From: Minisyncoccota bacterium
GTDB lineage: Bacteria; Patescibacteriota; Minisyncoccia; Phycocordibacterales; GWA1-40-21
DNA: 64,000 bases
Assembly (NCBI GenBank): GCA_041659365.1
Contig: JBAZYH010000003.1
Location: forward strand, 7,678 to 71,677
Direction: 5' to 3'
The position numbers were made by a program, and so were the translations under genes. Positions 15,977 through 63,630 of the stretch are shown here, in pieces; the first letter of the stretch is position 1; each line of letters opens with the position of its first letter. The notes under the pieces are model-generated. The model saw nothing but the letters and a program-made list of their open reading frames with translations. It made no database searches and was not told where the DNA came from.

Positions 15977-16055
15977 TCCAGCAGGATCATGTCGCGTAGT
16001 GTCCATTGAAACGCGACATAAACTAATAGACAATTTCCTTTAATGCATTAAAACA

Positions 16056-16134
16056 AACCTGGATTACGACGCTTTGCTCGTAATGACAGAAAAGTGAGTT
16101 GTCTTTGCGAGGTAATCCGTCGCAAACCAGGTTA
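16056..16134. repeat. Family-C composite element
   Basis: AACCTGGATTACGACGCTTTGCTCGTAATGACAG ... TCTTTGCGAGGTAATCCGTCGCAAACCAGGTT. Confidence 0.55.
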
Positions 16135-16160
16135 ATTGTATAGAGATTAAATAAAATTAG

Positions 16161-16778
16161 ATGAATTCCATAGATAAACTTATAAGAATATTTTCAGAAT
16201 TTCCTGGAATAGGACCAAAGCAAGCGAGAAGGTTTGTCTACTTTCTTATTACAAGACATGAAGGTTATATTGAAGAATTTAAAAGAGAGATAACTGAGCT
16301 TAGGAATGAAATAGAAACTTGTATTGATTGTAAAAGATATTTTTCCAAAGGAACAAATAATAAAAATATTTGTAGTATTTGCGGTGACCCTACTCGTGAT
16401 AATAGTCAGCTTATGATAGTAAGCAGAGATATAGATTTTGAGAACATTGAAAAAAGTCATTTCTTTAATGGTAAATATTTTATTCTTGGAGGTGTTGTAC
16501 CAATACTTGATAAAAATCCAGAACAAAGGATTCGTCTAAAAGAACTTTTAAATCTTGTTGGTAGAATGTCAGAAAATGGATTGAAAGAAATAATAATGGG
16601 TCTTGATGCAAATTCTGAAGGTGAATATACAACCGAGATTATTAAAAATAATCTATCCCCTATTGTCACAAAATATAATATAAAAATATCAGAGCTTGGT
16701 CGTGGACTTTCTACAGGTACCGAGCTTGAATATTCTGATTCGGAGACTATTAAGAATGCATTGAAGAATAGGAGCTAG
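16161..16778 (+). CDS. recR: Recombination protein RecR
   Basis: HhH motif FPGIGPKQARRF, a C4 zinc finger CIDCKRYFSKGTNNKNICSIC, and a Toprim region. Confidence 0.9.
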   Translation: MNSIDKLIRIFSEFPGIGPKQARRFVYFLITRHEGYIEEFKREITELRNEIETCIDCKRYFSKGTNNKNICSICGDPTRDNSQLMIVSRDIDFENIEKSHFFNGKYFILGGVVPILDKNPEQRIRLKELLNLVGRMSENGLKEIIMGLDANSEGEYTTEIIKNNLSPIVTKYNIKISELGRGLSTGTELEYSDSETIKNALKNRS

Positions 16779-17008
16779 TCTGTCGCGGACAAGACGCGGA
16801 AAAATACAAAAAAAGATTCAGGATTTATGAATATTGCAAAAATCTTTAATAAATAAAGTTTAAAATCATGTTTTAGGTACACACATTTGTCACCTACAAT
16901 CCTACCATTTCATGCTGATACTTACGGCTATTGTGATGGTGGATATTGGTATGAATAATATGTCAGTGGTGGCGGTGACCTTTAATTTGTAGAGATGATT
17001 TGTTTGTG

Positions 17009-17046
17009 ACCCCGAAGTTCGCCATGGCGAACTTCGGGGTTTTAAT
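17009..17046 (+). terminator. Strong rho-independent terminator
   Basis: GACCCCGAAGTTCGCCATGGCGAACTTCGGGGTTTT is a 13-bp perfect stem plus a T-run. Confidence 0.8.
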
Positions 17047-17238
17047 TTTTCTTAAATCTTGCCTGCCCGACTGAACAACAAAAATATTCAGTCGTTCAGG
17101 CGGGAATCTTAAATCATGAATCTACCTTTTTCTTTTTACCACCTTCTTTATAAACTCCATGAAAAGTTTGATATATAGTTTTATCCTTGCTATGATAAAA
17201 AAAGAGGTTCTAAACAAGCAAAGAAAGGTGGAGGGTTC

Positions 17239-17523
17239 ATGCCAAACATTGTGATGGTTGGAATAGATGATGAACAGTTTAGAGGAAGGATTCGACAAAT
17301 TTTGCTCTCTATGGATGATGAAGGTGTTTCAACCGACTCAAGGATTACTAAAAATGTGGGTAGTTCATGTAACGAAATCGTTAATGATGAAAAAACTCAC
17401 TACCTCATTGTTCGGGATACAAACAAGACTAGAGGTGCAAGAATTGCTGTAATACTTTCAGGAAAGCTTAAAATCTATGTAGAAATGGAGGTGCTTGCGG
17501 GTTCTTATCCTTGTGTTAAATGA
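17239..17523 (+). CDS. Hypothetical protein (94 aa)
   Basis: RBS AAAGGTGGAGGG. Followed by terminator 17541-17566. GC content above background. Confidence 0.4.
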   Translation: MPNIVMVGIDDEQFRGRIRQILLSMDDEGVSTDSRITKNVGSSCNEIVNDEKTHYLIVRDTNKTRGARIAVILSGKLKIYVEMEVLAGSYPCVK

Positions 17524-17540
17524 TTGAATCTTTTAAAAAG

Positions 17541-17566
17541 GGTCGCGTGTGTACACGCGACCCTTT
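17541..17566 (+). terminator. Rho-independent terminator
   Basis: GGTCGCGTGTGTACACGCGACC hairpin followed by CTTTT. Confidence 0.75.
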
Positions 17567-17752
17567 TATAATTTATTTTTCTTAAATCCTGAATCTTGAA
17601 TCATAAATCTACCCCTTCCTCTTTACCCGTTAAAGTTTTTGCCGACGTATCTGCTTTAGGTAGATACCGAAAAAATCAAAACTTTGATTTTTTTCATCGG
17701 TAAAAATTTTCTCGGGTGAACTGCCTACTTTATAAACTCTTTAGAAATAGGA

Positions 17753-17781
17753 TTGACTTTTAAAGTATTGTTTACTATTCT
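17753..17781 (+). promoter_or_regulatory. Sigma70-like promoter (TTGACT-17-TATTCT)
   Basis: Lies upstream of the small ORF at 17823. Preceded by a CTTTATAAACTC motif that is also found upstream of ORF 17239. Confidence 0.4.
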
Positions 17782-17822
17782 TTAGAAAGAAAATAGTGTG
17801 ATAAAAACAAAAAGGAGTTGAA

Positions 17823-18065
17823 ATGCAAATCCTGCACACAACCAGAGAAGGTGTTATCGTTGAATTGGATGAAAGTAACGGGAGGATTACTGTTTATAGT
17901 AGTAGTGGAAAACTTAATGTTGTTGTTCCACATAGTAGAGAGATTATTGTTAATGGATATAAAGAAAGAGAGATTGTTTTTAAAGAGAATATTTTACACG
18001 GTTCTAAAGTTGAGGTTGGAACAAAAGATCCTTCAATTGGGGTTGAAATTAGGTTTTGCGGATAA
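17823..18065 (+). CDS. Hypothetical protein (80 aa)
   Basis: RBS AAAAAGGAG. Beta-rich small protein with no recognisable family. Confidence 0.4.
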   Translation: MQILHTTREGVIVELDESNGRITVYSSSGKLNVVVPHSREIIVNGYKEREIVFKENILHGSKVEVGTKDPSIGVEIRFCG

Positions 18066-18099
18066 AAATAAGTCCATAAGTAGAAAAGTTCGCTTTTTA

Positions 18100-19767
18100 C
18101 TAGTGGACTTTTCTTTTGTTTGCCTCCTTTATAAACTCTGTAAAAAGTGGGTGAGGTGCAAGAGGTCTTGCGAGGAATTCTGGGTGGAATTGTGTACCTA
18201 GGAAAAAAGGATGAATTTTTTTAGGAAGCTCGGCTATTTCCATAAGTATTCCATTTGGTGATTTACCTGAAAATACCAAACCTGCATCTGTTATTTTTTT
18301 AATAAACTCTGGGTTAACTTCATATCGGTGTCTGTGTCTTTCTTGTATTATTTCTTTACCATAAGCCTTATAAGCTAAGGTATCTTTTTCTATATGTGCA
18401 CTATAAGAACCAAGTCTCATACTTCCACCGTAGTTACATTCTTCAAGCTTTTTCTTTTGATCTGGCATTATATCTATCACAAGAGAGCTTGAACTTTTAT
18501 CTATTTCTGCAGTATTTGCATCTTTAAGTTTTAGTACATTTCTTGCATATTCAATAACCATAAGTTGCATACCATAACAAAGTCCAAAGTATGGTATTTT
18601 GTGTTCTCTTGCATATTTAATTACAGCAAGCTTCCCTTCTATACCAGATTCTCCAAAACCACCAGGGACGATTATTCCTCCAAATTTATCTAATTCTTTA
18701 AACTTTTTTGCCAAGGACGGTCCTCGACAAGTCTCAAAGTCTCTTGAATTTATAGTGTGGATTTTTGCTTTTATACCAAGTTTATAAGCTGAATATTTGA
18801 TAGCTTCAAGAACAGAAACATAAGCATCAGTAAGAACAAAATCACCTGTATTAAAATATTTTCCAACAATAGCGATGTCTACAGTACCTTTTGTATTTTT
18901 TACACTATTTGCAAATTTAATCCACTCACCTATTCCTGTTCCATTTTTCTTCTCTCTTAGATGAAGTATTTTTAAAAGTATCTTGCTTATATTATCTTTT
19001 TCAAAATTTATTGGAACGTCAAAAACACTTTCAATATCTGGAGCTGAGATTATGTGCTCAACAGGTAAACTACAAGAAATAGCAATCTTTTCTTTTCTTC
19101 TATGATCCATAGGTACTTCGCTTCGAGCAATAATAATATCTGCATTTACTCCATAAGAATTTAGCTGACGAAGAGCATTTTGAGTTGGTTTTGATTTCAT
19201 TTCGCCTAGCGCATGAGGCACTGGCATATAGCTCACCATTACAAAAGCAACATCATTTGGGTATCTGACTTTCATTACTCGAGCAGCCTCTATAAACATT
19301 ATATTTTGATAGTCACCTATTGTGCCACCTATTTCAACTACTGTTATGTCTGACTTGTTTACTTTTGCCGATTTTTCGAATCTGTTGATTATTTCATCTC
19401 GAATATGAGGAATTGCTTCTACGCATTTTCCACCGTATTTAAGAGCTCTCTCTGCCTCTATGACGTGTTTATAGACCATACCTGATGTTATATAGTCATT
19501 ACCAGTTAAGTCTCTATTTAGGAACCTTTCGTAGTTTCCCATGTCCTGATCTGTTTCAAGTCCTGAGTTGAGGACAAACACTTCCCCATGCTCTATTGGG
19601 TTCATAGTACCAGCATCTACATTCAAATATGGGTCAACTTTTAAAAGGTTTACAGGGAAACCCTTAGCTTGTAAAAGAGCACCAATAGATGATGTGGCAA
19701 TACCTTTTCCCACACCGGACATTACCCCCCCAACAACAAAAATATATTTATGGGTTTTGTTTTTCAT
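18100..19767 (-). CDS. pyrG: CTP synthase
   Basis: N-terminal IFVVGGVMSGVGKGIATSSIGALL and a C-terminal class-I glutamine amidotransferase domain (GLCYGMQ). Length 555 aa. Confidence 0.95.
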   Translation of the reverse strand: MKNKTHKYIFVVGGVMSGVGKGIATSSIGALLQAKGFPVNLLKVDPYLNVDAGTMNPIEHGEVFVLNSGLETDQDMGNYERFLNRDLTGNDYITSGMVYKHVIEAERALKYGGKCVEAIPHIRDEIINRFEKSAKVNKSDITVVEIGGTIGDYQNIMFIEAARVMKVRYPNDVAFVMVSYMPVPHALGEMKSKPTQNALRQLNSYGVNADIIIARSEVPMDHRRKEKIAISCSLPVEHIISAPDIESVFDVPINFEKDNISKILLKILHLREKKNGTGIGEWIKFANSVKNTKGTVDIAIVGKYFNTGDFVLTDAYVSVLEAIKYSAYKLGIKAKIHTINSRDFETCRGPSLAKKFKELDKFGGIIVPGGFGESGIEGKLAVIKYAREHKIPYFGLCYGMQLMVIEYARNVLKLKDANTAEIDKSSSSLVIDIMPDQKKKLEECNYGGSMRLGSYSAHIEKDTLAYKAYGKEIIQERHRHRYEVNPEFIKKITDAGLVFSGKSPNGILMEIAELPKKIHPFFLGTQFHPEFLARPLAPHPLFTEFIKEANKRKVH

Positions 19768-19800
19768 AGTTATATTTTAACAAATTAATTAATAAATAAA

Positions 19801-19841
19801 ACAATTATTAAAAATTAAAAAACGCACCTTCGGGGTGCGTC
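19801..19841 (-). terminator. Bidirectional intrinsic terminator (downstream of rplU)
   Basis: ACGCACCTTCGGGGTGCGT hairpin flanked by A/T runs on both sides. Confidence 0.65.
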
Positions 19842-19849
19842 TTTCATCT

Positions 19850-20167
19850 TTATTTTATAGAGTCAATTTTTACTTTGAAGTATGGCTGTCTGTGTCCGTT
19901 TTTCTTGAAGTATCTACTTTTCTGTTTGTAGTGGATGACTGTGACTGTCGGTAGTTTTCCTATTTCTTCTATTGTTGCCTCTACTTTAGCACCGTTTATA
20001 AAAGGTGTACCGATAGTTGTATCCTTACCATTATCTACTAGTAAAACATTTTCAAAAGCAACTTTGTCGCCTTCTTTATAGTCTCCTAAAAGCTTTTCTA
20101 TTTTAATAGAGTCACCCTTAGAAACTTTATATTGTTTACCTCCTGTTTTTATTACTGCAAATTCCAT
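19850..20167 (-). CDS. rplU: 50S ribosomal protein L21
   Basis: MEFAVIKTGGKQYKVSKGD...KRRKHYRKKQGHRQPYTK-like C-terminal region. Confidence 0.9.
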   Translation of the reverse strand: MEFAVIKTGGKQYKVSKGDSIKIEKLLGDYKEGDKVAFENVLLVDNGKDTTIGTPFINGAKVEATIEEIGKLPTVTVIHYKQKSRYFKKNGHRQPYFKVKIDSIK

Positions 20168-20208
20168 AGGATGTATATTACACGATTTTTCAAAAAACGC
20201 AATACTTG

Positions 20209-21006
20209 TTATAAGATCAATATTATAATCAAAATAGCGAGTATTAATCTATAGTAAATAAAGACTTTGAGGGAGTACTTTTTAAGAAAATTCATTAAAA
20301 ATTTTATTGCAAACAATCCGACTATGAATGCAGTTAAAGCACCTACTAGTAAGGTTATCCAGTCACTAGATAACTGACCTGATAACCATATTTCATAGAC
20401 TTTTTTTAATCCAGCACCAAGTATAATTGGTATAGAAAGTAAAAAACTAAACCTAGCCGCGTTTCCTCTGTCTAGTCCAGAAAATAGTCCTCCTGATATT
20501 GTTGCACCCGATCTAGAGAAACCTGGCACTAAAGCAAGGCATTGGAAGAGTCCAATGTAAAAACCTTTTTTAATTGTTAAATCTTCGTTTTGTGTTGAAA
20601 ATTTTTCTGCAAGATACATTACTAAACTTCCTACTATTAGAACAAAGGCAACTAATAATGAACTTCTAAAAATGGTCTCCATGTATTTTTCTAAAAATAT
20701 TCCAGCTATTATTGCTGGTACGGTTCCTATTATTATTGCAAGAATAATCGTCTTGTCTTCTTCATCAGTCTTTTTTTTAGTAATAAGATTTAAAAAAGAT
20801 CTGATTAATTTAAATATGTCTTTCCAAAAATAAACTATTATAGCAAGAGCTGTTGCTAGTTGTAATATTGCATCAAAAGATAGGTCTGAACTCGTGTGCC
20901 AACCTAAAATATCTCTAAATATAATAAGATGTCCAGAGGAAGATATAGGTAAAAACTCTGTTAAACCTTGAACAATTCCTAAAATTATTGAGTCAAAAAT
21001 ATTCAT
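20209..21006 (-). CDS. uppP: Undecaprenyl-diphosphatase
   Basis: GLTEFLPISSSGHL and GFSRSGATISGG are BacA/UppP signature blocks. 8-TM protein. Confidence 0.9.
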   Translation of the reverse strand: MNIFDSIILGIVQGLTEFLPISSSGHLIIFRDILGWHTSSDLSFDAILQLATALAIIVYFWKDIFKLIRSFLNLITKKKTDEEDKTIILAIIIGTVPAIIAGIFLEKYMETIFRSSLLVAFVLIVGSLVMYLAEKFSTQNEDLTIKKGFYIGLFQCLALVPGFSRSGATISGGLFSGLDRGNAARFSFLLSIPIILGAGLKKVYEIWLSGQLSSDWITLLVGALTAFIVGLFAIKFLMNFLKKYSLKVFIYYRLILAILIIILIL

Positions 21007-21259
21007 CCCGTTAGAGATAGGAAATGTTTGTAAATTTTATCACAAACTAAATATTCCCATCAAATTTTATTTTTATCGACTTGTTTTTCTATTAAACATT
21101 TCCGTTATTAATAAACAGTATTTTGTTAATAATCAATATAATTTAACATTTTAATCTATTTTTAGAAAACCAACCATATTATCTCTGACGGGATTCATTG
21201 CTTTTAATTAAACTGACATGATATAATATACCCTATTATTAATAATTAATAAACAAATT

Positions 21260-22039
21260 ATGCAAGAACAAAAGAATAATTTATATATTCCAGGTGCAAT
21301 AATCTTAGCTGGATTTTTGATTGCTGGTGGTATATACATGACAAATAATAAAGGTGGTGTAGCCAATGTAGACAATGGTGGCGATGGTGCTAAAAAAACA
21401 GAGATAACTATTAAACCTGTGGGTAAGGATGATAATGTTTTAGGTAGCGTAAGTGCACCTATAACAATAGTTGAATTTAGTGATACTGAGTGTCCTTTTT
21501 GTAAAAGATTTCATACAACCATGCATAGTATAGTAGATACTTATGGTAAGGATGGAAAGGTTGCTTGGGTATACAGACATTTCCCTCTTGATTCATTACA
21601 CCAGAAAACAAGAAAAGAGGCAGAAGCTGTAGAATGTGCCGGTGACCTTGGTGGAGGTGAGGCTTATTGGAAAGTTTTGGATTCAATTTATACAAATACA
21701 ACTTCAAATGATGGTCTTGATGTAAAAAGACTTCCAGAATTTGCAAAAACAGCAGGACTTGATGTAACAAAGTTTAATGAATGTTTATCAAGTGGAAAAA
21801 TGGCAGGTGTTGTAGAAGCTGAATATCAAGACGGTTTGAAATCTGGTGTTCATGGTACACCATACAGTGTAATGATGTTGAGCAAAGCACTTAAATCTAG
21901 TGCAGAGAAGGAAATAAATGATTTTGTACAAAGTAAGGGTTTACAACAAAACGTTACTGTTCTTGATAAAAAAATAGTTCTTAATGGAGCTTTACCGGTT
22001 GAAATAATCAAACCTATTATAGATATAGTATTGAAATAA
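21260..22039 (+). CDS. DsbA-like thiol:disulfide oxidoreductase (thioredoxin fold, CPFC active site), membrane-anchored
   Basis: N-terminal TM, then CPFCKRFH redox motif in a DsbA-like context. Confidence 0.75.
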   Translation: MQEQKNNLYIPGAIILAGFLIAGGIYMTNNKGGVANVDNGGDGAKKTEITIKPVGKDDNVLGSVSAPITIVEFSDTECPFCKRFHTTMHSIVDTYGKDGKVAWVYRHFPLDSLHQKTRKEAEAVECAGDLGGGEAYWKVLDSIYTNTTSNDGLDVKRLPEFAKTAGLDVTKFNECLSSGKMAGVVEAEYQDGLKSGVHGTPYSVMMLSKALKSSAEKEINDFVQSKGLQQNVTVLDKKIVLNGALPVEIIKPIIDIVLK

Positions 22040-22065
22040 ATTTAAAAAGGTAGTGTTTATTTAAA

Positions 22066-22093
22066 AAATAACCCCATATTGGGGTTATTTTTT
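22066..22093. terminator. Bidirectional terminator between the dsbA-like gene and the helicase gene
   Basis: AACCCCATATTGGGGTT hairpin flanked by A- and T-runs. Confidence 0.7.
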
Positions 22094-22139
22094 AAATAAT
22101 AAAAAGTTTCTAATGTCTTTTAAGTAATTTATTTATTTA

Positions 22140-25568: not shown

Positions 25569-25645
25569 AATTACTTAATATGATAACACTTATATAATTA
25601 ATTAAAAATAGAAAAACGTCACTCGCGTGACGTTTTTAAAAATAT

Positions 25646-28880: not shown

Positions 28881-28964
28881 TATAGCAAATTTATATGTAA
28901 GATGATAATTGTATGTTTTGTTTACACCTACTCAAAAGGATTCTCCTTGTGTATCTAGTTGGGT

Positions 28965-29070
28965 AATTGGTTTGCGTCCCCCCAATAGGACCCTACTAAA
29001 ACGGGCAAGTAGTTGGGTGACGTATTTTTGAAAAAATAAAACCGCGCCTGCAACATATGCTAAACGCGGT
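28965..29070 (-). repeat. Conserved hairpin module (GTCCCCCC-loop-GGGTGAC + TTTTTGAAAAAAT palindrome) plus the intrinsic terminator of the response-regulator gene
   Basis: Same architecture as the copies at 15991, 60669, 62309-62470, 62784-62858 and 63556-63630. The minus-strand terminator is CCGCGCCTGCAACATATGCTAAACGCGG followed by TTTTATTTTTT. Confidence 0.6.
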
Positions 29071-29078: not shown

Positions 29079-29486
29079 TTACTTTTGTTTGATTTGATCG
29101 ATGATAACTTTTACAGCATCGACTTTTGTACAGTCGGTACCTAAGAATACACCCTTGTTACCCAGTTCTTTTAGTAAGATTGATGTGTAATCAGGCAGAA
29201 TCGACATTGGGTAAACTAACCCATGAAAGCCTTCTGTCTCTGCAATTTCCTTTGCAAGAGGAAGTGTTTCTGGTTCTTTAGGAAAAGGAGTGCCTATTTT
29301 TATTGGAGTAAGGCTCCCATCAAGAAGAACATGAGTAATATTGTCTTTGTTTGCCCTAAAAAGAGACAGGGCATCTTCAATATTGTGAGCAATAATGAAG
29401 CTCGCTCCATTTGCTCGTAACATCGAGGATAACAACCGACTCATCATTGGATCGTCTTCAACGACAAACACCAATTTTTCCTTCAT
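29079..29486 (-). CDS. Single-domain response-regulator receiver (CheY-like)
   Basis: VFVVEDDP acidic pocket, phospho-acceptor Asp in VLLDGSL, and a conserved Lys near the C-terminus. Length 135 aa with no output domain. Confidence 0.6.
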   Translation of the reverse strand: MKEKLVFVVEDDPMMSRLLSSMLRANGASFIIAHNIEDALSLFRANKDNITHVLLDGSLTPIKIGTPFPKEPETLPLAKEIAETEGFHGLVYPMSILPDYTSILLKELGNKGVFLGTDCTKVDAVKVIIDQIKQK

Positions 29487-38477: not shown

Positions 38478-38565
38478 AATGTTTGATTAGTCAATGATAT
38501 ATCAAACATTTATAAAAGTCAATAAAAAAAGAATAGATACCTTATTTGTATTTTGTCTTTGCGAG

Positions 38566-38758
38566 CGAATGCGAAGCAATCCAGGATTCAAATTAAGATG
38601 GATTGCTTCCTTACAGGAACTGTGACACAGGGTTACTTCTTGTTTACTAATTCGCTTTGCTCATAAGAAAACAAAGTCGTACACTTTTCACATTTTAATT
38701 ACAAAACGTTCAAGGTCTTTCATTTGGGCCCCACCCCAAATTTCAACTCGCAAAGACG
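38566..38758. repeat. Family-C composite element with internal TTTGGGCCCCACCCCAAA hairpin
   Basis: TCTTTGCGAGCGAATGCGAAGCAATCCAGG ... CTCGCAAAGACGCC. The internal hairpin is the reverse complement of the one at 8889-8904. Confidence 0.55.
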
Positions 38759-46693: not shown

Positions 46694-46958
46694 AAAACTC
46701 TAGCGGGTTTTAATCGATAGAGGTAGAGCCTTCGTGAACAAAGAGCTCCCCGCCATCGCGATAGAACCTTTCGGCCCTACCCATACCAGTTTCCCGATAT
46801 GACCCGCTAGAGTGACTCTGACGAGGAGTCCTTTGTTCTCTAGCGGGTTTTGCAACCATATCCTTATTTCTAAGGGGTTAGGTCGACTTTTATTAAATTG
46901 TTATTGATATGATAGCACAATAAAAGCTATCATAAAAGTATACTAGCTTAAATTAAAA

Positions 46959-51683: not shown

Positions 51684-51685
51684 TT

Positions 51686-52366: not shown

Positions 52367-52370
52367 ATTT

Positions 52371-54780: not shown

Positions 54781-54819
54781 GGTCCTTCGATACTAATTTC
54801 CTTTGCTGCTGCTCTAGGA
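54781..54819. repeat. att-like direct repeat copy 2
   Basis: GGTCCTTCGATACTAATTTCCTTTGCTGCTGCTCTAGGA. Confidence 0.55.
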
Positions 54820-54904
54820 CTGTCACTAGGTCTAGTACTGGCTATAAATATACACCTAATTAAAAAATTCGCTAGTTTTTTTAGTTCTAGTCCTAAGTTT
54901 AAAA

Positions 54905-55414: not shown

Positions 55415-55587
55415 ATTTTAATTGTAACATTTTTGTAATAATTAACTATTTTGAGAATATATAAACCAAAAAAAAGGAACTTGGTCTAGAACCAAAATGA
55501 CGGCTTAAAACATATAAATTAAAAAGTAACGGCTTTAGGACCAGAAACGGTGATTTTAAAATACATTGAAAAATATAGACCATTTCT

Positions 55588-55661
55588 GGTCCTTCGATAC
55601 TTTTTTACTTTGCTGTGGAACTAGGAATCGAACCGAATTCATTATAACACAAAGCTTTTCA
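55588..55661 (-). repeat. att-like direct repeat copy 3 fused to a tRNA 3'-end-like fragment (T-arm GGTTCGATTCC + acceptor-like TAGTTCCACAG)
   Basis: Minus-strand reading is ...GGTTCGATTCCTAGTTCCACAGCAAAGTAAAAAAGTATCGAAGGACC. No complete cloverleaf could be folded. Confidence 0.45.
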
Positions 55662-55727
55662 GAGATCAGGCTATCTAGCTCTAGTTGCATAGGTACTTGA
55701 GCATAACTCAAGTTGCCTTATCTAGGT

Positions 55728-56495: not shown

Positions 56496-56602
56496 AATGA
56501 TTATTTATTATTTGTATAATGGTTATTATACACGATTGACTCTTTTTGTCAAATCAATAGACTTGTAATAGAAACAGTTCATTGAAAAGAAAGGATTCTC
56601 TT

Positions 56603-57211
56603 ATGAAAGCTTTTGGATTAACGGGTAACGCTGGTTGTGGTAAAAGCACTGTTGCTTCCCTATTTTCAAGGTATCAGGATGTCTTGATTATTGATTGTGA
56701 TCGTGTGGCTAAAGAAATTCTATCTAACCAAACATTACAAAGAGAAATCAACTCTATTCTTGGTACGGATGTTTTTCCAGATGGCAAAGTAAATCGGAAA
56801 CTCATCGCAAACATAATCTTCAAACAACCAGAAAAGAAACGACTGATGGAGGAATTAGTTCATCCTATTGTATGGGCAACTGTACAAAAGATGATTCAAG
56901 AAACATCTAAAGGAACAGTTTGTATCGTAGAGTCAGCTATTATCTACGAGACAAAAAGTGAAAATCTTTTTGAAGCTGTTATTGATGTAACTTGTGATTA
57001 TGAGGAACAAGTTCGTCGGCTTCGAGAAAATCGTAAGATGGAAGATTCTGACATTCAAGCTCTGCTTACTAGTCAGCTTTCATCATTTGAAAAAGAAAGG
57101 AGAAGTCATTTTGTGATAAACACAAACTGTACTTTAGAACAACTGAGTGAAAGGGTTGAAAAACTCTACAGAGAACTCAAACAGAAAGGAACGAACCATG
57201 AAAACGCGTAA
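56603..57211 (+). CDS. coaE: Dephospho-CoA kinase
   Basis: MKAFGLTGNAGCGKSTVASLF P-loop and CoaE architecture. ATG at 56603 with AAGGA RBS (the track ORF starts at a TTG 21 nt upstream). Confidence 0.8.
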   Translation: MKAFGLTGNAGCGKSTVASLFSRYQDVLIIDCDRVAKEILSNQTLQREINSILGTDVFPDGKVNRKLIANIIFKQPEKKRLMEELVHPIVWATVQKMIQETSKGTVCIVESAIIYETKSENLFEAVIDVTCDYEEQVRRLRENRKMEDSDIQALLTSQLSSFEKERRSHFVINTNCTLEQLSERVEKLYRELKQKGTNHENA

Positions 57212-58334
57212 AGTTGTGTACGCAGCAAGTCTCGATCCCATCACAAATGGACATCTAAATGTTATCGAGCGTTTTGCACCACTATACGACGAATTTATCG
57301 TTGTTGTGGCTGTAGATGCTCGCAAGACATACATGTTCACTCCAGAAGAACGAGTGAGTATGACTAAGTCGGCTGTCGCTCACATTTCAAATGTTACGGT
57401 TGATGTCTGTATTGGCCGTTATGTTGTGAAATATGCCGAATCAGTTGGTGCACAGGTCATAATTCGTGGTTTGCGAAATTTCAAAGACCTCGAAGACGAA
57501 CAGGTTCTTGCGGAAGAAAATCGTAGGATATGTTCGACAATCGAAACCATCTGGGTACCTTGCTTGCCGAATCTTATGCATATAAGTTCGAGTATGGTTA
57601 AGGGACACGTTGGTATTGACCCTGACTGGGAAGAACAAGTTGTGCGTTCAGTACCCAGTATCGTAGTTACCAAACTCAAGGAGAAGTACATGCTTAACAG
57701 AGCAAAGAAACATTGGGCTTCACTAATGGCTTTACTTGGAAATCCAAAAGGATCAGAATTGGTCTTTGCGGAACTCCTTTTGAAATATAGTGAACCTCAT
57801 CGTGCTTACCATACACTCGAGCATGTTGTAAATATGCTCGATGAATTGGAATCGGTCGTCGATAAACTGAATGATAAAGACGCTGTAAAAATGGCCGTCT
57901 GGTATCATGACGTTGTTTACGATCCGATGACTAAAGATCATCACGTAGTCGCCGACAATGAAGTGAGAAGTGCATATCGAGCCGAGCTTGATCTCGAAAA
58001 GCTCGGTTTGTCTTCAAACTTTAGTGAGAGAGTTCAAGCTTTAATCATGGCAACAACACACACAGAGAAAGTCACTGACTCTGATACCATGTTTATGGTT
58101 GATCTCGATCTTGCCATTCTCGGTAAATCAGAAAAGGAATTCGAAAGTTACGAAAAAGGAATCCGCAAAGAGTATGACTGGGTATCAGAAGCCGACTTTT
58201 GTGTAGGTCGAAGCAAGGTACTTGAGTCATTTTTGAATCGTGAGACGGTATATTCTACTGAAGTCTTTCGGAGTCGGTATGAAAATACCGCTAGAAAGAA
58301 TATGGAGAAATCACTCACATTACTGAAACAGTAA
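57198..58334 (+). CDS. coaD: Phosphopantetheine adenylyltransferase (CoaD) fused to a C-terminal HD-domain phosphohydrolase
   Basis: VVYAASLDPITNGHLNVIE (PPAT HxGH-type motif), then ~230 aa with YHTLEHV...VWYHDVVYDP (HD motif). Overlaps the coaE 3' end by 14 nt. Confidence 0.7.
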   Translation: MKTRKVVYAASLDPITNGHLNVIERFAPLYDEFIVVVAVDARKTYMFTPEERVSMTKSAVAHISNVTVDVCIGRYVVKYAESVGAQVIIRGLRNFKDLEDEQVLAEENRRICSTIETIWVPCLPNLMHISSSMVKGHVGIDPDWEEQVVRSVPSIVVTKLKEKYMLNRAKKHWASLMALLGNPKGSELVFAELLLKYSEPHRAYHTLEHVVNMLDELESVVDKLNDKDAVKMAVWYHDVVYDPMTKDHHVVADNEVRSAYRAELDLEKLGLSSNFSERVQALIMATTHTEKVTDSDTMFMVDLDLAILGKSEKEFESYEKGIRKEYDWVSEADFCVGRSKVLESFLNRETVYSTEVFRSRYENTARKNMEKSLTLLKQ

Positions 58335-58341
58335 AAGCTCA

Positions 58342-58379
58342 AGAGCCTACAAAATAGAAATATTTTGTAGGCTCTTTTT
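58342..58379 (+). terminator. Rho-independent terminator
   Basis: AGAGCCTACAAAATA...TATTTTGTAGGCTCT hairpin followed by TTTTT. Confidence 0.75.
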
Positions 58380-58608
58380 AAATATATATTATATTTTATA
58401 ACTAATTTACATCATTGGTTCTATTCCTAGTCCCATCATGCAAAAAACGCTCTATGCAGAGCTAAAAAATCCTTATATTATCGCGTCTCGAGCTACGCAC
58501 GAGTTGGCTGGACGTATGGTATGAAGTTGGAACATTTTTAATACTTAAGTAATAGAAAAGGCCGACAGAAGATTAAACTCCTGTCGGCCCAAAAACCTTC
58601 CTTCCTCT

Positions 58609-59073
58609 TCACTTCTCCTTGTATTCTTCCAGAACTTGAATGAATGGGTACTGCTTTGCACTGTAAGCATAACCACGCATGATATCCCTCATACCCCGAT
58701 ATTCTTCTTTGTATCCGAGGTTAAAGGAAATGCGATTTGCCCACCAGTAGTAGTACCACCCTTCCGTTTCAATAAATTCTCTCCAGTGTCCTGGATCGAA
58801 CTGAACCAGCTTTGCACTGGCTCCACGACCCGCAGACATTACAGCCACACGAACTGGCCGGACATCCACACGAACCACAAAAACCCACGGTGGTGTTATG
58901 TGTATGCCACCTTTTTCTTGAATCCACATTTCGCCAGTAATCTTATTCCTGGCGATACCGATCTGGGTAGGTTCTGTATAGTTCACAAAACCAATGTAAA
59001 AGAAAAAGGTAATGGTCAAAGAAACAACGATCGTCTTTGACCATTTCTTTTCAAAGAGTTGATGTACGTTCAT
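58609..59073 (-). CDS. Membrane-anchored hypothetical protein, GC-rich paralog B (possible SPFH/band-7-like fold)
   Basis: Start Met shares an ATGA overlap with the upstream paralog's stop codon. Contains VRVDVRPVRVAVMSAGRGASAKLVQFDPGHWREFIE. GC content ~50%. Confidence 0.45.
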   Translation of the reverse strand: MNVHQLFEKKWSKTIVVSLTITFFFYIGFVNYTEPTQIGIARNKITGEMWIQEKGGIHITPPWVFVVRVDVRPVRVAVMSAGRGASAKLVQFDPGHWREFIETEGWYYYWWANRISFNLGYKEEYRGMRDIMRGYAYSAKQYPFIQVLEEYKEK

Positions 59074-59567
59074 TTTGTCACACTGAACATTTTGTTCGTC
59101 GAAGCTTCTGCACATTGATTTGGGGCAATTTCTTGGATTACCTCCAAAAACGGGCAATCCCTTCCACCGGCCAGATCAAAGGCATAGCATTTTAGGATCT
59201 CCAACAACCAAGTCGTGTTGTCACCAGCATCACGACCATGCCACTCAACGAATGTCTCCAGCCCGTCCGGATTGAACCGTACAAGCTTGGCATTCAACAC
59301 ACGCTGATTTGCACTGATTGTGAGCTGATAAGGACGAAGGTCAATCGCGTGCACGCTGTAACGAATCGGCGTGCGAATGACCCAGCCCGTATGGTTGACC
59401 GTCTCGATCTTGCCGGTAGCCTTGTCGAAGACGAAGCCCATCTGGTAATTGTCGACGAGCGTAACCCACAAGGCAAACCAGATGAGAAACCCGATGAAAG
59501 CGACAACCAAAGAAACAGCGAGACCAATCACGATGTTTTTAACCATATTCCTGTTAATGAATTTCAT
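59070..59567 (-). CDS. Membrane-anchored hypothetical protein, GC-rich paralog A
   Basis: N-terminal TM. VHAIDLRPYQLTISANQRVLNAKLVRFNPDGLETFVE parallels the downstream paralog. GC content ~50%. Confidence 0.45.
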   Translation of the reverse strand: MKFINRNMVKNIVIGLAVSLVVAFIGFLIWFALWVTLVDNYQMGFVFDKATGKIETVNHTGWVIRTPIRYSVHAIDLRPYQLTISANQRVLNAKLVRFNPDGLETFVEWHGRDAGDNTTWLLEILKCYAFDLAGGRDCPFLEVIQEIAPNQCAEASTNKMFSVTK

Positions 59568-59678
59568 CTTTCCTTGAACCTTTCTTTTCTTCCTAGAAAC
59601 TGCTAGGACAGTTATACCTTACAAGGTACTATAAGAATCTATATCTAATTATACACATAATTATATATATGTCAAGTG

Positions 59679-59749
59679 CTGGGGGACTTGGATTCGAACC
59701 AAAATAAACGGATTCAAAATCCGTTGTCCTACCATTAGACGATCCCCCA
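59679..59749 (-). tRNA. tRNA-Gln (anticodon UUG)
   Basis: Minus-strand sequence is TGGGGGATCGTCTAATGGTAGGACAACGGATTTTGAATCCGTTTATTTTGGTTCGAATCCAAGTCCCCCAG. It has a 7-bp acceptor stem, D-arm TAATGGTAG, anticodon stem ACGGA/TCCGT with loop TTTTGAA, and T-loop TTCGAAT. Confidence 0.8.
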
Positions 59750-59753
59750 ATAT

Positions 59754-60443
59754 TTAACCTTTCAATATACCATTAACCCAACCCTGAACCTTCCTATTTA
59801 ATGTTGAGCTCTTCAATACTTTAACGCGTAATAAGCCAAAATACAAGTCCCCTATGTTTTTTCTTTTTGTTTTTATTATATTTTTCTTAAAATAAACTGT
59901 ATCAAAAAATTTAATATCAAAACCAGTCATATTTGACCAATATTCTTTAAATCTCTGCACTTCATTTCTATGATTATCATGAATATATATTTCAAAACCC
60001 ATTTGACCTTCTTGTATTTTACATATTTTAGTTAACCATTTTAAAAATACAATAATCATCTTTGGATCAGAATTTGAAAATTTTATCCCTGAACCCGGAG
60101 CATATTCTTTCTCTTTTGAACCTTCAGCCCAGTATAAAGCTGTGCCAATAAGCCAAAGTTCTCTATCTGAGATTTTTCCGATCTCTGTTTCTGAAGAATT
60201 CAATATTCCTTTTGAAAGTTCTATTCTTTGTCTTTTTCTAGCTAAACCACCACTCAAACTTGCGAGTCTTCTCTTTTCGGTAAAAGCTTGTTTTTGATGT
60301 TTTGCTATACCCACATCTCTGAGCCATTCAGAAAGAGTCGATTTTGCTACAGGAATAATCTTGAGAATTTCCGAATAAGTTTTCCCAGATTTTCTAAGAT
60401 TAATCGCTCTAATATTTAATTCTTTTTTACGAACATTTATCAT
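59754..60443 (-). CDS. Hypothetical HTH-containing protein with possible LAGLIDADG-like motif, abutting tRNA-Gln
   Basis: N-terminal KSGKTYSEILKIIPVAKSTLSEWL (HTH). LWLIGTALYWAEGS resembles a LAGLIDADG block. Tentative. Confidence 0.35.
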   Translation of the reverse strand: MINVRKKELNIRAINLRKSGKTYSEILKIIPVAKSTLSEWLRDVGIAKHQKQAFTEKRRLASLSGGLARKRQRIELSKGILNSSETEIGKISDRELWLIGTALYWAEGSKEKEYAPGSGIKFSNSDPKMIIVFLKWLTKICKIQEGQMGFEIYIHDNHRNEVQRFKEYWSNMTGFDIKFFDTVYFKKNIIKTKRKNIGDLYFGLLRVKVLKSSTLNRKVQGWVNGILKG

Positions 60444-60487
60444 TAGTTCTAGTATACATGAATAATGTTCATAAGTATATCAATATC

Positions 60488-60518
60488 AACCTGGACTGCT
60501 TCATCATGTTCGCAAAGA
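60488..60518. repeat. Family-C palindromic repeat copy (AACCTGGA...CGCAAAGA)
   Basis: Matches the copies at 6415, 9093, 16056-16134, 38566 and 60757. Confidence 0.55.
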
Positions 60519-60574
60519 CATACAAAAATCTGTATAATAAAAAAGAATTGTACAAACAAAAGAAAGGGGGTTGC

Positions 60575-60601
60575 GATGGCAACTGCGAAGAAGACGAGAT
60601 A
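60575..60601 (+). other. Tiny ORF (MATAKKTR, 8 aa) with strong RBS inside a ~110-nt promoter-to-terminator unit
   Basis: TATAAT at 60533-60538, RBS GAAAGGGGG, then ATG. Terminator GGGTCGTTTACGACCC followed by TCTTTTTT at 60623-60652. Confidence 0.3.
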
Positions 60602-60668
60602 AGAAGTTCTCGCTAACGAGAAGGGTGGGTCGTTTACGACCCACTCTTTTTTACTTTAGCGAAAGTAT

Positions 60669-60748
60669 GTCGCGTAGTGCTTGCCCGAAACATTTGTATT
60701 CAAATAGGCGGGTCCATTGAAGCGCGACACAAACTAATAGAAAATTCC
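60669..60748 (+). repeat. Conserved hairpin module copy (expanded loop), GTCGCGT...GCGCGAC + ACAAACTAATAGAAAATTCC
   Basis: Same stem and tail as the copies at 15991 and 62309. Confidence 0.55.
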
Positions 60749-60860
60749 TTATAATTAACCTGGATTGCGACGCTTTGCTCGCAATGACAATGCAAATACT
60801 GGATTCCCCCTCCTGAGGCGGGCAGGCTATCTTCGCGGGAATAACAACACAAACTAAAAC

Positions 60861-61895
60861 CTAGTTTTTCTCGATTAGTTTCACTAAAACAAGTTCAAGT
60901 GGAAGCTCTGGAATATAAGCCTTTGTCACCATATCATAATAATTTAAGAGAGTGAGTAAAGAGTCAGAATTAATCTTTGATGGTTTTTTATCGGCAAGTC
61001 CTTTCAAGAAAATAAAATCTGAGTCAGAAAGTTCCTCTTTCAACTTCCCTTCTGCACTTTTTAGATTTCTTAAAAGTAAGATTGAGCGCATTTTGTGTAA
61101 TACTAGTCTAAAATACAAAAGCATATCTATATTTAGATCAGTAGCCTTTGATACAGCCCCTAAACCTAGTTCTAAGTTCCCTTCATCTATTGATCTAATA
61201 AAATCATTTACTATCTCGGCTCGTGGTGCACCTGTTACGAGCTCTACTTCTTCAGGAGAAACTTTATTGTCTTTTGAAGAGCTTATTACTTTCTGTAAAA
61301 TACTTTCTGCATCACGAAAAGATCCATCACCAAGTAAAGCTATGAGCTCGGCAGATGAAGGTTCTATTTTAAAATTCTCTTTTTTAGCAATAGAGATAAT
61401 TACATCCTTTAAAACCTTTTGGGTTGGTTTTTTAAAAACAAATGTCTGACATCTGGAAACTATTGTTTCTGGAATTTTGTTTGATTCAGTAGTAGCAAGT
61501 ATAAAAATAACATGACTTGGTGGTTCCTCAAGCGTTTTCAAGAGTGCATTCCAAGCTGACTTTGAAAGCATGTGTGCTTCATCTAGTATATAAACTTTAT
61601 ATTTTGATTCAAAAGGAAGACTGTTTACAGATTCATTTAGTGCGCGTATATCATCCACACCAGTATTTGATGCTGCATCTATTTCTGTAACATCATTTGA
61701 AGTTGTACCTATTTCTTTTGCAAAGATTCTTGCAATACTTGTCTTTCCTGTACCTCGTGAACCAGAAAATATATAAGCATGAGCAATATTTCCAAGTTTG
61801 ATAGATGATTCCAAAACTTTTACTATATGATCCTGACCCAATACTTCACCGAAATTTTGTGGGCGATATTTTCTATATAATGTTGTTTCTGACAT
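60861..61895 (-). CDS. dnaX: DNA polymerase III subunit gamma/tau (short form)
   Basis: YRPQNFGEVLGQ, GSRGTGKTSIARIFAKE (Walker A), and DEAHMLS (Walker B). Length 344 aa. Confidence 0.85.
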   Translation of the reverse strand: MSETTLYRKYRPQNFGEVLGQDHIVKVLESSIKLGNIAHAYIFSGSRGTGKTSIARIFAKEIGTTSNDVTEIDAASNTGVDDIRALNESVNSLPFESKYKVYILDEAHMLSKSAWNALLKTLEEPPSHVIFILATTESNKIPETIVSRCQTFVFKKPTQKVLKDVIISIAKKENFKIEPSSAELIALLGDGSFRDAESILQKVISSSKDNKVSPEEVELVTGAPRAEIVNDFIRSIDEGNLELGLGAVSKATDLNIDMLLYFRLVLHKMRSILLLRNLKSAEGKLKEELSDSDFIFLKGLADKKPSKINSDSLLTLLNYYDMVTKAYIPELPLELVLVKLIEKN

Positions 61896-62044
61896 AGGGA
61901 GATTATATCATATGAGATTAAGAATGTTGAATAGTGAATGTAGAATGTAGAATCATTATTCATAAATGGTTAAGCTACATTATTTTGTAAAATAAAAATA
62001 CCGTACTTCTCATGAAGTAAGGTATTAAGTAGTAAGTTTCATCC

Positions 62045-62185
62045 TCAAGACTCAGGTGACACAAGAAGTTCATCACCCTTACCTTCTTGCCAAATTTCGG
62101 TAATAACTTCTGCAGACACAGTGACCAAACTCAGATCTGATTCACCATCTTCTTTTGCATTTTTGTCAGGTTCTCTTTTTTTCAT
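62045..62185 (-). CDS. Small acidic protein (46 aa)
   Basis: Strong RBS AAAAAGGAGAATCTTATG. Possible promoter TTAACT-16-TATTAT upstream. Minus-strand terminator at ~61993-62015. Confidence 0.3.
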   Translation of the reverse strand: MKKREPDKNAKEDGESDLSLVTVSAEVITEIWQEGKGDELLVSPES

Positions 62186-62308
62186 AAGATTCTCCTTTTT
62201 AAAACATTCCTTAAAAATAGTAACAGATAAAAGGAAAAATACAAATAATATTATTAGAGATACTTTAGTTAATTTTAATACATTAAAGGAGGTTTCTATT
62301 TAGTTTTC

Positions 62309-62470
62309 GTCGCGCTTCAATGGACGGTGCGCGACGTGATAAAATTAATTACACAAAATTCATATATGGAAGTTGTCTATTAGTTTGCGTCCCCCTAATC
62401 GGACAGTTGGGTGACGTACTTTTGCAAAAGTAAAAATAGCACCCACCGAGAAAGTCTCAGGGGGTGCTAT
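62309..62470 (-). repeat. Composite conserved hairpin module: GTCGCGC-TTCAATGGACGGT-GCGCGAC, GTCCCCC-loop-GGGTGAC, CTTTTGCAAAAG palindrome, and a minus-strand terminator
   Basis: Two hairpin variants in tandem, then a perfect 12-bp palindrome, then ATAGCACCC...GGGTGCTAT hairpin with a T-run on the minus strand. Confidence 0.6.
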
Positions 62471-62651
62471 TGGGTTCGGCTTACGAACCCGGGCGCCGGC
62501 AGGTCAGATCAGATTAAGGGTGTAACCCCAGATCGGACCCGCACGAGCGGTGCCGTGGTTTGTCTTTTTCATTGTGTTTCCCTTTTTGCCTTTTACCGCA
62601 GGTTCATCACGATGAAGCGAGGTTTCATCAACCAAGCCTTGTACTGATTCA
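62436..62651 (-). ncRNA. Candidate ~215-nt GC-rich structured small RNA of unknown family
   Basis: Minus-strand sigma70 promoter TTGACA (62685-62680), 16-nt spacer, TATACT (62663-62658). Intrinsic terminator at 62470-62436. GC content ~55% versus ~30% background. The only ORF inside is 22 aa. Confidence 0.35.
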
Positions 62652-62657
62652 TATACA

Positions 62658-62685
62658 AGTATAGCATACCTAGTTTTTTTGTCAA
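62658..62685 (-). promoter_or_regulatory. Sigma70 promoter TTGACA-16-TATACT (minus strand)
   Basis: Perfect -35 and a near-consensus -10 with a 16-nt spacer. Confidence 0.6.
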
Positions 62686-62783
62686 GCTTTTTTGCATTTC
62701 ATCTTGTTAAGAAGTTTAAATACGTTGATAAATAAGGATATTTATGGGTAGTAATTAAAATATAAAAACATCTATTTATTTGC

Positions 62784-62858
62784 GTCGCGCTTCAATGGAC
62801 AGTGCGCGACGTGCTTCTGCTGAAGCAAAAAAAGAAGGGCGGTTCTGCTGAACCGCCC
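62784..62858 (-). repeat. Conserved hairpin module copy + minus-strand terminator
   Basis: GTCGCGCTTCAATGGACAGTGCGCGAC, then GGGCGGTTCTGCTGAACCGCCC with a T-run on the minus strand. Confidence 0.6.
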
Positions 62859-63212
62859 GTTAGAAAAGACTCGTATGTTGCTCAACTTATTACCTATCTC
62901 AAGTTTTTCCAACATTCATACAATCATAAGCTGCGTTGTTGATAAGTAAATTCAGAAGAACAGCTTACAGACAAACGAGTTAGGTGTCTGCACGTTTTTT
63001 AAAGTGGAACTTACCACTCAAAAAGTTTGTAGTCAGGAACTATCAAACACCTTGTCACTTTGCATAGTAACCTTCCTTTCTTTGAGATCTGTCTAAAGTT
63101 GATACTAATTTATTTTAAACAAAAGTCAATAAAAAAGAGGACGGAGTAAACTCCGCCCTCACCTTGTCCTTGATCTCGGTATCGGTCTTTCACCCCGTTC
63201 AGTGCGGTGGGA

Positions 63213-63320
63213 TTACAGACCTTCCTTGGCCGTGATCGAAGTCTTCATGAACGTGCCGTCAGCCGTCTTAGCCACGATGCACTCAATACCAACCATCGAA
63301 TGAGCTGTTAACTTGGGCAT
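63213..63320 (-). CDS. Small GC-rich ORF (35 aa, MPKLTAHSMVGIECIVAKTADGTFMKTSITAKEGL); may instead be part of a structured RNA
   Basis: RBS AAAGGA 10 nt upstream. Minus-strand terminator at 63128-63165. GC content far above background. Confidence 0.25.
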   Translation of the reverse strand: MPKLTAHSMVGIECIVAKTADGTFMKTSITAKEGL

Positions 63321-63555
63321 AGTCAGTTTTCCTTTAGAGAACCGATAACACACCATTACCCTAGACAAAACCGTATTTTATCAAAGCTATACTTTAACAA
63401 AACCTTTGTTACCACCAAAGGTATCTAGAGTAAGAAAATTATTACATAAGAGAAAATTTTATGCAAATTTGAAATATATAAAACAGATTCAAGATTTATG
63501 ATTCAGGATTTAAGATGAATTAAAATTCGTATAAGGAAGTTGTCTACTAGTTTGT

Positions 63556-63630
63556 GTCGCGCTTCAATGGACATTACGCGACATATTTTCGCAAAAATAA
63601 AAACGGCGGGAGTACATGACTCTCGCCGTT
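63556..63630 (-). repeat. Conserved hairpin module copy + minus-strand terminator
   Basis: GTCGCGCTTCAATGGACATTACGCGAC, then ATTTTCGCAAAAAT, then ACGGCGGGAGTACATGACTCTCGCCGT with a T-run on the minus strand. Confidence 0.6.

Follow-up and report, generated by a model that had tools for sequence, protein, structure and literature searches.

A two-hairpin palindromic repeat unit in Patescibacteria and its seven copies in a 64-kb stretch of a Minisyncoccota genome

Hairpin units in the window

The 64,000-nucleotide stretch of a Minisyncoccota bacterium genome that was analysed here (contig JBAZYH010000003.1, positions 7,678 to 71,677; hereafter the window) contained seven copies of a hairpin unit, named c1 to c7, at six sites. 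These were recovered by a regular-expression scan and a covariance-model (CM) scan of the full 64 kb, which revealed no further convincing copy. The core of the unit, approximately 45 nt in length, consisted of a first hairpin (hp1) that was immediately followed by a second (hp2). Hp1 had the form GTCGCGY-TTCAATGGAC-N3-4-RCGCGAC, with a GC-rich stem of 7-8 bp and a sequence-conserved loop that tolerated inserted stem-loops, and hp2 (RYGATTYYGCWRAATCR) had an AT-rich stem of 6-8 bp and a 4-nt loop. The copies, some of which carried a 20-nt leader, were arranged as follows:

c1, 15974-16038, minus strand: hp2 at 15974-15990, hp1 at 15991-16017, leader GGAAATTGTCTATTAGTTTA at 16019-16038; CM score 72.6 bits, fold -20.5 kcal/mol, z -3.2; the dnaB stop codon TGA (15974-15976) sits inside hp2, with no terminator there
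c2, 60652-60748, minus strand: hp2 at 60652-60668, hp1 at 60669-60728, leader at 60729-60748; 46-nt hp1 loop holding an extra inserted stem-loop; CM score 19.1 bits (hp1 only); directly after a plus-strand terminator at 60623-60652
c3, 62309-62335, plus strand: hp1 only, without hp2; degenerate leader-like flank at 62291-62308; CM score 47.8 bits; in tandem with c4
c4, 62368-62433, plus strand: leader at 62368-62387, variant hp1 GTCCCCC-TAATCGGACAGTT-GGGTGAC at 62389-62415, hp2 TACTTTTGCAAAAGTA at 62418-62433; CM score 27.9 bits; abuts a minus-strand terminator at 62439-62471
c5, 62765-62827, plus strand: degenerate leader at 62765-62783, hp1 at 62784-62810, hp2 GTGCTTCTGCTGAAGCA at 62811-62827; CM score 71.7 bits, fold z -3.6; abuts a minus-strand terminator at 62837-62858
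c6, 63535-63598, plus strand: leader at 63535-63554, hp1 at 63556-63582 with a closing C.A mismatch (U.G on the complement), hp2 ATATTTTCGCAAAAAT at 63583-63598; CM score 66 bits; abuts a hairpin/terminator at 63601-63631
c7, 28955-29039, plus strand: weak leader-like flank at 28955-28975, variant hp1 GTCCCCC…GGGTGAC at 28976-29021 with a 32-nt loop that holds an inserted stem-loop, hp2 GTATTTTTGAAAAAATA at 29022-29039; abuts the terminator of the minus-strand open reading frame (ORF) 29079-29486

An original prediction, made from this stretch by reading alone, had reported a family of conserved hairpin modules at these sites, and the copies were indeed present in numbers far above chance. The 27-nt hairpin GTCGCGCTTCAATGGACAGTGCGCGAC, with up to three mismatches allowed, had four matches in the window versus 0.00 expected, and the 20-nt leader had three matches versus 0.01 expected. 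In motif orientation, the order of elements was (leader), hp1, hp2, A-run and GC hairpin. Hp2 always faced the 3′ end of the preceding gene, that is, its terminator or, at c1, the dnaB stop codon; all seven copies abutted a preceding stop codon or terminator, and the next ORF was located roughly 75-215 nt away. The order that had been described as constant on the minus strand (terminator, palindrome, hairpin, leader, next gene) held for the plus-strand copies c3 to c7, whereas the minus-strand copies c1 and c2 follow it on the plus strand; the terminator does not always come first, as the dnaB stop codon within the palindrome of c1 indicates. The palindrome, which corresponds to hp2, was conserved except for its absence from c3, and the leader was well preserved only at c1, c2, c4 and c6, being weak or degenerate elsewhere. 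The hp1 loop ranged from 13 to 46 nt, and the GTCCCCC/GGGTGAC stem had one internal mismatch in either orientation. A further hairpin at 17542-17561 (GTCGCGT-GTGTAC-ACGCGAC), just after the plus-strand ORF 17239-17523, had the hp1 stem only, with a 6-nt loop and no other part of the module.

Downstream of the module, at c5 as well as at c7, lay the predicted promoter of the following gene; the module itself was 20-80 nt upstream of the predicted -35 element. The small ORF 62504-62572 beyond c5 had a predicted sigma-70-like promoter, TTGACA-16-TATACT, at 62685-62658, and promoter-like sites of purF beyond c7 were found at 28935-28879, the best of them being TTGAGT-16-TACAAT at 28935-28908. Because these predicted promoters lie beyond the modules, c5 and c7 would be located between transcription units, in the gap from terminator to promoter, and would not be the 5′-untranslated region (5′-UTR) structures that had been proposed.

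Structure, distribution and context of the unit

Outside the window, exact-pattern scans recovered 73 loci in a genome survey with one genome per species and at least 120 loci in a metagenome survey in which stem transitions were allowed, for a total of at least about 190 loci, almost all in Patescibacteria. Among the genome-scan loci, 71 of the 73 belonged to Patescibacteria or to unclassified metagenome-assembled genomes (MAGs), and the other two were high-GC and looked like chance hits. The MAG labels comprised Nomura-, Yonath-, Kaiser-, Taylor- and Magasanikbacteria, Paceibacteria, Minisyncoccia and 'Saccharibacteria', among others. Because the loop and the greater part of hp1 were set in the scan patterns, the apparent conservation of the loop and stem is inflated. 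A scan of viral contigs yielded only chance matches without stems, and a phage origin was rejected on this ground.

Both hairpins were supported by compensatory changes, in agreement with the original prediction. Among the 63 copies used for structure statistics, hp1 pair 7 was C-G in 35 and U-A in 26, double changes occurred in five of the six hp2 pairs, and 97.7% of cells were paired, versus 17-51% when the partner was slid. The metagenome copies added a second covarying pair, with U-A and C-G at hp1 pair 2, and more variants. The stem variants included GCCGCGC/GCGCGGC, as well as GTCGCAC/GTGCGAC and CCGGGC/GCCCGG, which are examples of divergent copies with wholly different stems around the same loop. 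The hairpins are therefore real, and the loop appears to be recognised by its sequence. Single mismatches of the G.U type in hp1 numbered 13 on the motif strand versus 22 on its complement, among 672 pairs; the stem mismatches thus favored neither RNA strand, and the two ends of the unit were not inverted repeats of each other. No tandem array was present at the modules, and the stems GTCGCGC/GCGCGAC were devoid of the AAC/GTT cores of attC (RYYYAAC…GTTRRRY), which separates the unit from CRISPR, TIGR and integron attC sites.

The leader was limited to close relatives of the window (L041, L073, L098, L221 and L223) and constitutes a 5′ extension of the unit. It had been assigned to the next gene in the original prediction; in L223 it belongs to a sense copy directly before the pyrG start codon, which identifies it as part of the element itself. 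A pseudoknot between leader and loop, in which UUGUCUAUU could pair with AAUGGACAG, was considered but set aside: it could form in some copies only, and the leader is lineage-specific.

The genomic context was counted for 149 distinct copies outside the window, among the matches listed:

Inside long ORFs, sense, frame 3: 33 of 149 copies
Inside ORFs, other frame or orientation: 6 of 149 copies
Before a start codon, sense, with hp2 ending 0-3 nt upstream of the ATG (ORF length 60 codons or more): 33 of 149 copies
Other intergenic positions, both orientations: 77 of 149 copies

The orientation was not random, as had been anticipated: intragenic copies were sense in 34 cases versus antisense in 5. 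In the genome scan, about a quarter of the 71 copies were intergenic and antisense. Some copies were nested, in tandem or extended.

The apparent hosts of intragenic copies included LeuRS/IleRS, MsrA, MsrB, a Mur ligase, FtsK and XerC/D; except for MsrA, host genes were named by eye from their translations. Hp1 was 27 nt long in 38 of the 39 intragenic copies, resulting in a 45-nt insert, a multiple of three. The host protein was readable on both sides of in-frame inserts, as confirmed by an alignment of MsrA with and without the insert. In frame 3, the unit was read as the peptide …RASMDTARHDSAES…, with the general form …R/H-A/V-S-M-D-x-A/T-R-H-D-S/F-A/V-E/K-S…. Compensatory changes in hp2 turn S…E of this peptide into F…K, which places the constraint on nucleic-acid pairing rather than on the peptide. 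A SECIS-like (selenocysteine insertion sequence) element, prompted by the hosts MsrA, MsrB and glutaredoxin, was rejected on account of the lack of a UGA codon and the many unrelated hosts.

Genes with a copy abutting the ATG included, by eye, dnaK, tatA, rpsG, rplW, rplV, iscS and a glutaredoxin gene, and the same gene carried such a copy in different species in three pairs of loci (L019/L033, L006/L060 and L055/L062). The Paceibacteria that were examined had no Shine-Dalgarno (SD) sequence upstream of their start codons; these copies therefore displace none. Two candidate functions at the start codon were rejected. A promoter inside the element (TGGACA-18-YAAAAT) would, on inspection, leave no more than 3-4 nt between its -10-like hexamer and the ATG, and covariation is seen in hp2. 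A translated N-terminal extension, or a start codon in the hp1 loop, fails in frame for copies with a 28-nt hp1 and for ACG variants.

Gain and loss of copies and neighbouring elements

Gain and loss were assessed with homologues of msrA, the rplD-rplW spacer, pyrG and the dnaB-recR region, which are independent of the search pattern. In msrA, one sequence (P0001) was filled and a 93%-identical relative (P0002) was empty, with the insert being patchy within the clade; the junction read CAC-CCAGGK-CAC when empty and CAC-G[45 nt; GTCGCGC…AATCG]-CAC when filled. Decayed inserts were found in an older clade (P0012, P0058 and P0063). The element seemed more conserved than its flanks in orthologous inserts, but this comparison is biased by the search pattern. 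The rplD-rplW spacer was 4-9 nt long when empty, contained hp1 and hp2 in L046 and hp2 alone in L220, and held unrelated palindromic inserts in others; no target-site duplication was seen at the rplW site.

The PyrG encoded in the window was 100% identical to a protein of a 'Candidatus Paceibacterota' MAG, which assigns the window to a CPR/Patescibacteria genome. Close relatives of the window differed in a similar manner. In L223, the PyrG of which was 95% identical, a leader, hp1 and hp2 together with copies of a second repeat (described below) lay in sense directly before the pyrG ATG, whereas the pyrG start in the window had no copy, just an AT-rich spacer of 55 nt. In L223, the purF spacer, orthologous to that of c7, contained a tandem pair of modules that lacked the loop insert seen in c7. 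L221 retained the ortholog of c1 in the dnaB-recR spacer and had an extra copy after rplI. L222 had no copy in 21.6 kb, and its dnaB ended in …DFGNAG* instead of …DFGDF*. A public short-read contig of 1 kb, obtained from a recR match, ended exactly inside hp1, as repeats break short-read assemblies. These comparisons of orthologous sites show that, even between closely related genomes, individual sites have gained or lost the unit, and that old copies decay.

Other repeats also occurred in spacers. The rplD-rplW spacer of L214 (276-400) had an unrelated 116-nt insert with a CAAAAC duplication, and that of L218 and L219 (343-400) had an unrelated AAGGACAGTCCTT…AAGGACTGTCCTT hairpin; several repeat families thus seem to share hotspots in the short spacers that precede start codons. 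Tandem AAGCCT/TAAAGCC-type short repeats filled ribosomal-protein intergenic spacers in the Nomurabacteria MAG L046 (4640-4722 and 7160-7232).

The window also harbored a second family of inverted repeats, built from AACCTGGATTRCGACG…CTCGYAATGACA plus the reverse complement of this sequence. The family was present at six or more intergenic sites and translates as …RFARND…:

6412-6446: second repeat
8870-9030: second-repeat arms that enclose about 130 nt of GC-richer sequence
9050-9125: second repeat
16057-16135, plus strand: second repeat adjoining c1, forming a long hairpin (z -4.7)
38554-38590: second repeat
60758-60790: half copy beside c2

This repeat belongs to one intergenic mosaic with the hairpin modules and was often located beside them, likewise in L041, L073, L221 and L223. 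Short GC-rich units were interspersed with the modules at 62436-62580 (minus), 63213-63320 (minus), 63652-63810 (minus) and 60577-60603 (plus), each with an apparent ribosome-binding site (by eye) or promoter and its own terminator. They are short ORFs or structured segments; candidate peptides included MKKTNHGTARAGPIWGYTLNLI, MPKLTAHSMVGIECIVAKTADGTFMKTSITAKEGL and MARSLKRHGRTTAVSTATCRVRHSMTTSTGGAMTALSTS, and none of the small GC-rich ORFs was matched by a Pfam or NCBIfam family. With its unusually good fold (z -5.6), the segment 62436-62580 may represent an RNA rather than a gene.

Elsewhere in the window, positions 46760-46884 (minus) gave a full-length match to the LOOT RNA (RF03000; 76.9 bits versus a gathering score of 46.4). 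The region 57000-60450, beside tRNA-Gln (59678-59749, minus), had a GC content of approximately 0.40-0.42 versus approximately 0.30 elsewhere and may be an acquired island; the minus-strand ORF 59754-60443 showed only faint similarity to the N-terminus of IS3 transposases, and the minus-strand ORFs 59070-59567 and 58609-59157 were assigned to no family. At about 17000-21000, the cumulative GC skew peaked and gene orientation switched from mostly plus to mostly minus in a converging manner, which would fit a replication terminus.

Affinities and interpretation of the unit

The modules probably belong to a family of small palindromic repeats that are mobile but non-autonomous. This family is common across Patescibacteria, chiefly Paceibacteria/Parcubacteria, and resembles repetitive extragenic palindromic (REP) sequences, bacterial interspersed mosaic elements (BIMEs) and Rickettsia palindromic elements (RPEs). 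The original prediction had set the modules apart from REP-like debris. The in-frame, ATG-abutting, nested and tandem copies and their presence/absence patterns are, on the contrary, the behavior of REPs, RPEs or MITEs (miniature transposable elements with inverted repeats). Still, the family falls under no formal definition of GTAG/CGTC REPs, RPEs or MITEs and looks like a previously undescribed one; full-text searches of a paper collection found no description of a two-hairpin unit of this type and no paper on small repeat families in Patescibacteria.

Similar to REPs and BIMEs, the unit is a short dispersed palindrome that occurs singly, in tandem or in mosaics with other motifs. It mostly lies close behind the 3′ end of the ORF upstream, at a variable distance from the next one, can supply a stop codon (c1 at dnaB), and has some copies inside genes, including those for tRNA synthetases; intragenic copies and a preference for the 3′ side of the upstream ORF are documented for REP families (PMC3733652). 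GTAG- and CGTC-tagged REPs carry a palindrome of 20-40 bp with an unpaired tag (GTAG or CGTC; TGTC/CCTC) at one end (Di Nocera et al., 2013, PMC3733652), and CGTC REPs have a stem of 8-9 bp, a loop of 4-5 nt and a short CCA-like tail, with the mobilising enzyme being unknown for some (PMC3733652). In contrast, the present unit has two different hairpins, its hp1 loop is a sequence-conserved 13 nt (up to 46 nt in the window) rather than 4-5 nt, and hp2 has no CCA tail. A C precedes GTC in 42% of copies, yielding CGTC, yet GTC pairs with the terminal GAC inside the stem and is not an unpaired tag. Further differences from REPs are sequence conservation across a candidate phylum rather than a species or genus and the large ATG-abutting class; no REP-associated tyrosine transposase (RAYT) gene was found nearby in the window.

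RPEs are palindromic elements that lie in frame in essential genes as well as in intergenic regions of small, AT-rich, host-dependent genomes, and RPE-1 measures 100-150 bp. The unit shares with them in-frame insertion without disruption of the ORF, where it is read as an extra peptide in tolerated loops, in addition to intergenic copies. It is set apart by its length of 45 nt, its presumably unrelated sequence and its occurrence in a different phylum; moreover, a single sense frame dominates and many copies are located at start codons. MITEs such as Correia/NEMIS and ERIC are comparable in being non-autonomous, hairpin-forming, dispersed and polymorphic in presence, and in being able to alter the ends of neighboring genes. 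The unit differs from MITEs in that it is much shorter, no terminal inverted repeats matching an insertion sequence (IS) were present and no target-site duplication was seen. An arrangement similar to that of REPINs (REP doublets) and their RAYTs was observed in L157 and in the CAZVEC01 MAG, where the hp1-hp2 core lay between two inverted GAGGTCGGACCTC-type repeats; in the latter, the core embedded between such arms was amplified to at least 10 copies. L157 contains at 7200-8060 a Y1_Tnp gene (PF01797, IS200/RAYT-like) with related palindromes of the GAGGTTCAACCTC type on its flanks and also within the gene itself. However, the hp1-hp2 core looks like cargo of another REP doublet there, and the Y1 gene is flanked by a different palindrome.

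The unit lands where a 45-nt insert is tolerated, namely in the gap from a stop codon or terminator to the next promoter, where all seven window copies are placed, directly before start codons, and in frame in surface loops of proteins. A trans-acting enzyme probably recognises and copies the unit as folded DNA, because the pairing constraint is strand-symmetric and the loop is sequence-specific. One may speculate that an enzyme acting on single-stranded DNA would favor sites that are often unwound. The unit also travels in mosaics with the second inverted-repeat element. In the window, its copies would exert only the effect of a stable hairpin between transcription units and most likely have no dedicated regulatory role.

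Several observations weigh against a mobile repeat. No mobilising enzyme was identified, and there was no Y1-transposase match in the window by tblastn with approximate IS200 TnpA and E. coli RAYT query sequences. At msrA, the one resolved coding site, 6 nt were replaced without a target-site duplication. The identical msrA junction recurred in separate sublineages, which may point to recombinational spread or, alternatively, to a strong specificity for the site. A loop and stem that are nearly identical across many Paceibacteria and two Magasanikbacteria-labelled MAGs would be unusual for selfish repeats, with the caveat that the scan patterns inflate this likeness. Furthermore, the sense copies that abut start codons (33 of 149) and the restriction of nearly all intragenic copies to one sense frame could reflect a function in RNA or translation rather than tolerance. 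The loop conservation, ATG abutment, sense-frame bias, undetected mobilising activity and missing target duplications leave room for a host-level role in RNA or translation, which is rather improbable. A similarly low chance is given to the proposal that hp1-hp2 is not merely selfish, that its invariant loop docks a protein or RNA conserved across Paceibacteria, and that the ATG-abutting copies are portable translation-start or mRNA-processing modules in organisms devoid of SD sequences.

The rival reading that fares best regards the unit as a cis-acting host RNA, either a portable 5′-UTR or translation-start module or a site for an RNA-binding protein or RNase, in Paceibacteria that lack SD sequences, and takes its mobility as only the way in which it spreads. 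Sense copies with the foot of hp2 at the ATG of diverse genes, their recurrence at the same gene in different species, the absence of SD sequences and the sense bias of intragenic copies argue for it, and the loop AUGGAC presumably resembles AYGGAY/ANGGA-like sequences. On the other hand, all seven window copies lie antisense to the flanking genes, after terminators, about a quarter of the genome-scan copies are antisense and intergenic, G.U pairs are not enriched on the sense strand, the unit is patchy among near-identical genes, and no Rfam family, including TwoAYGGAY, was matched on any module at the gathering score or at E values up to 10. This reading appears rather unlikely.

A host transcription barrier, in which hp1 plus the U-rich 5′ half of hp2, in motif orientation, would serve as a terminator, either back-up or bidirectional, that protects the preceding gene of an AT-rich genome from antisense transcription, is compatible with mobility but has a distinctly low probability. 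Hp1 in the window is followed by a U-rich stretch (AUAUUUUC, GUACUUUU, AUACUUUC or GUAUUUUU), the modules are always paired with the neighboring gene's own terminator, and REPs reportedly contribute to termination and to the stability of mRNA (PMC3733652). However, the terminator scan did not call hp1, the loop of which is at least 13 nt long, copies inside genes or abutting starts cannot terminate efficiently, and no consistent promoter faced the modules in the window.

The model of the original prediction, a transcription-factor operator in DNA, formed by the AT-rich palindrome, the GC inverted repeat or both, combined with a 5′-UTR RNA hairpin of the next gene that serves as a regulator or insulator, is very improbable. 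It was built on the constant order of elements at the window sites and on the conserved palindrome and stem, and a genuine structured family with consistent placement was indeed confirmed; the dedicated operator or 5′-UTR function was not. An operator is disfavored because the distance between the arms varies from 13 to 46 nt and the stems covary, so that half-sites change together instead of being conserved. In addition, the predicted promoters of c5 and c7 lie downstream of the module, the core is found elsewhere in both orientations and, in frame, within coding regions, and the following genes (purF, recR and small ORFs) are unrelated. Patescibacteria are reported to be naturally competent, and conservation throughout the phylum, including in coding regions, could point to a DNA-level cell signal, for instance one for DNA uptake or for organising the chromosome, but covarying stems imply a folded structure rather than a duplex word, loop lengths vary, and density is low and uneven (7 in the 64-kb window versus 0 in 21.6 kb of the close relative L222), making this reading highly unlikely.

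Patescibacteria are an uncultivated group with tiny, gene-dense genomes, in which a 45-nt unit with the same loop and stem across many Paceibacteria lineages is a useful marker of genome dynamics. The unit breaks short-read assemblies, yields spurious ORFs and N-terminal extensions in gene calls (L23 as MILLNH-M…), and lengthens conserved proteins by 13-15 residues. A trans-acting partner, should there be one, would represent a new mobilisation system or a new post-transcriptional signal. Should the docking or translation-start proposal be true, a mobile element would be rewiring the expression of essential genes across a candidate phylum.

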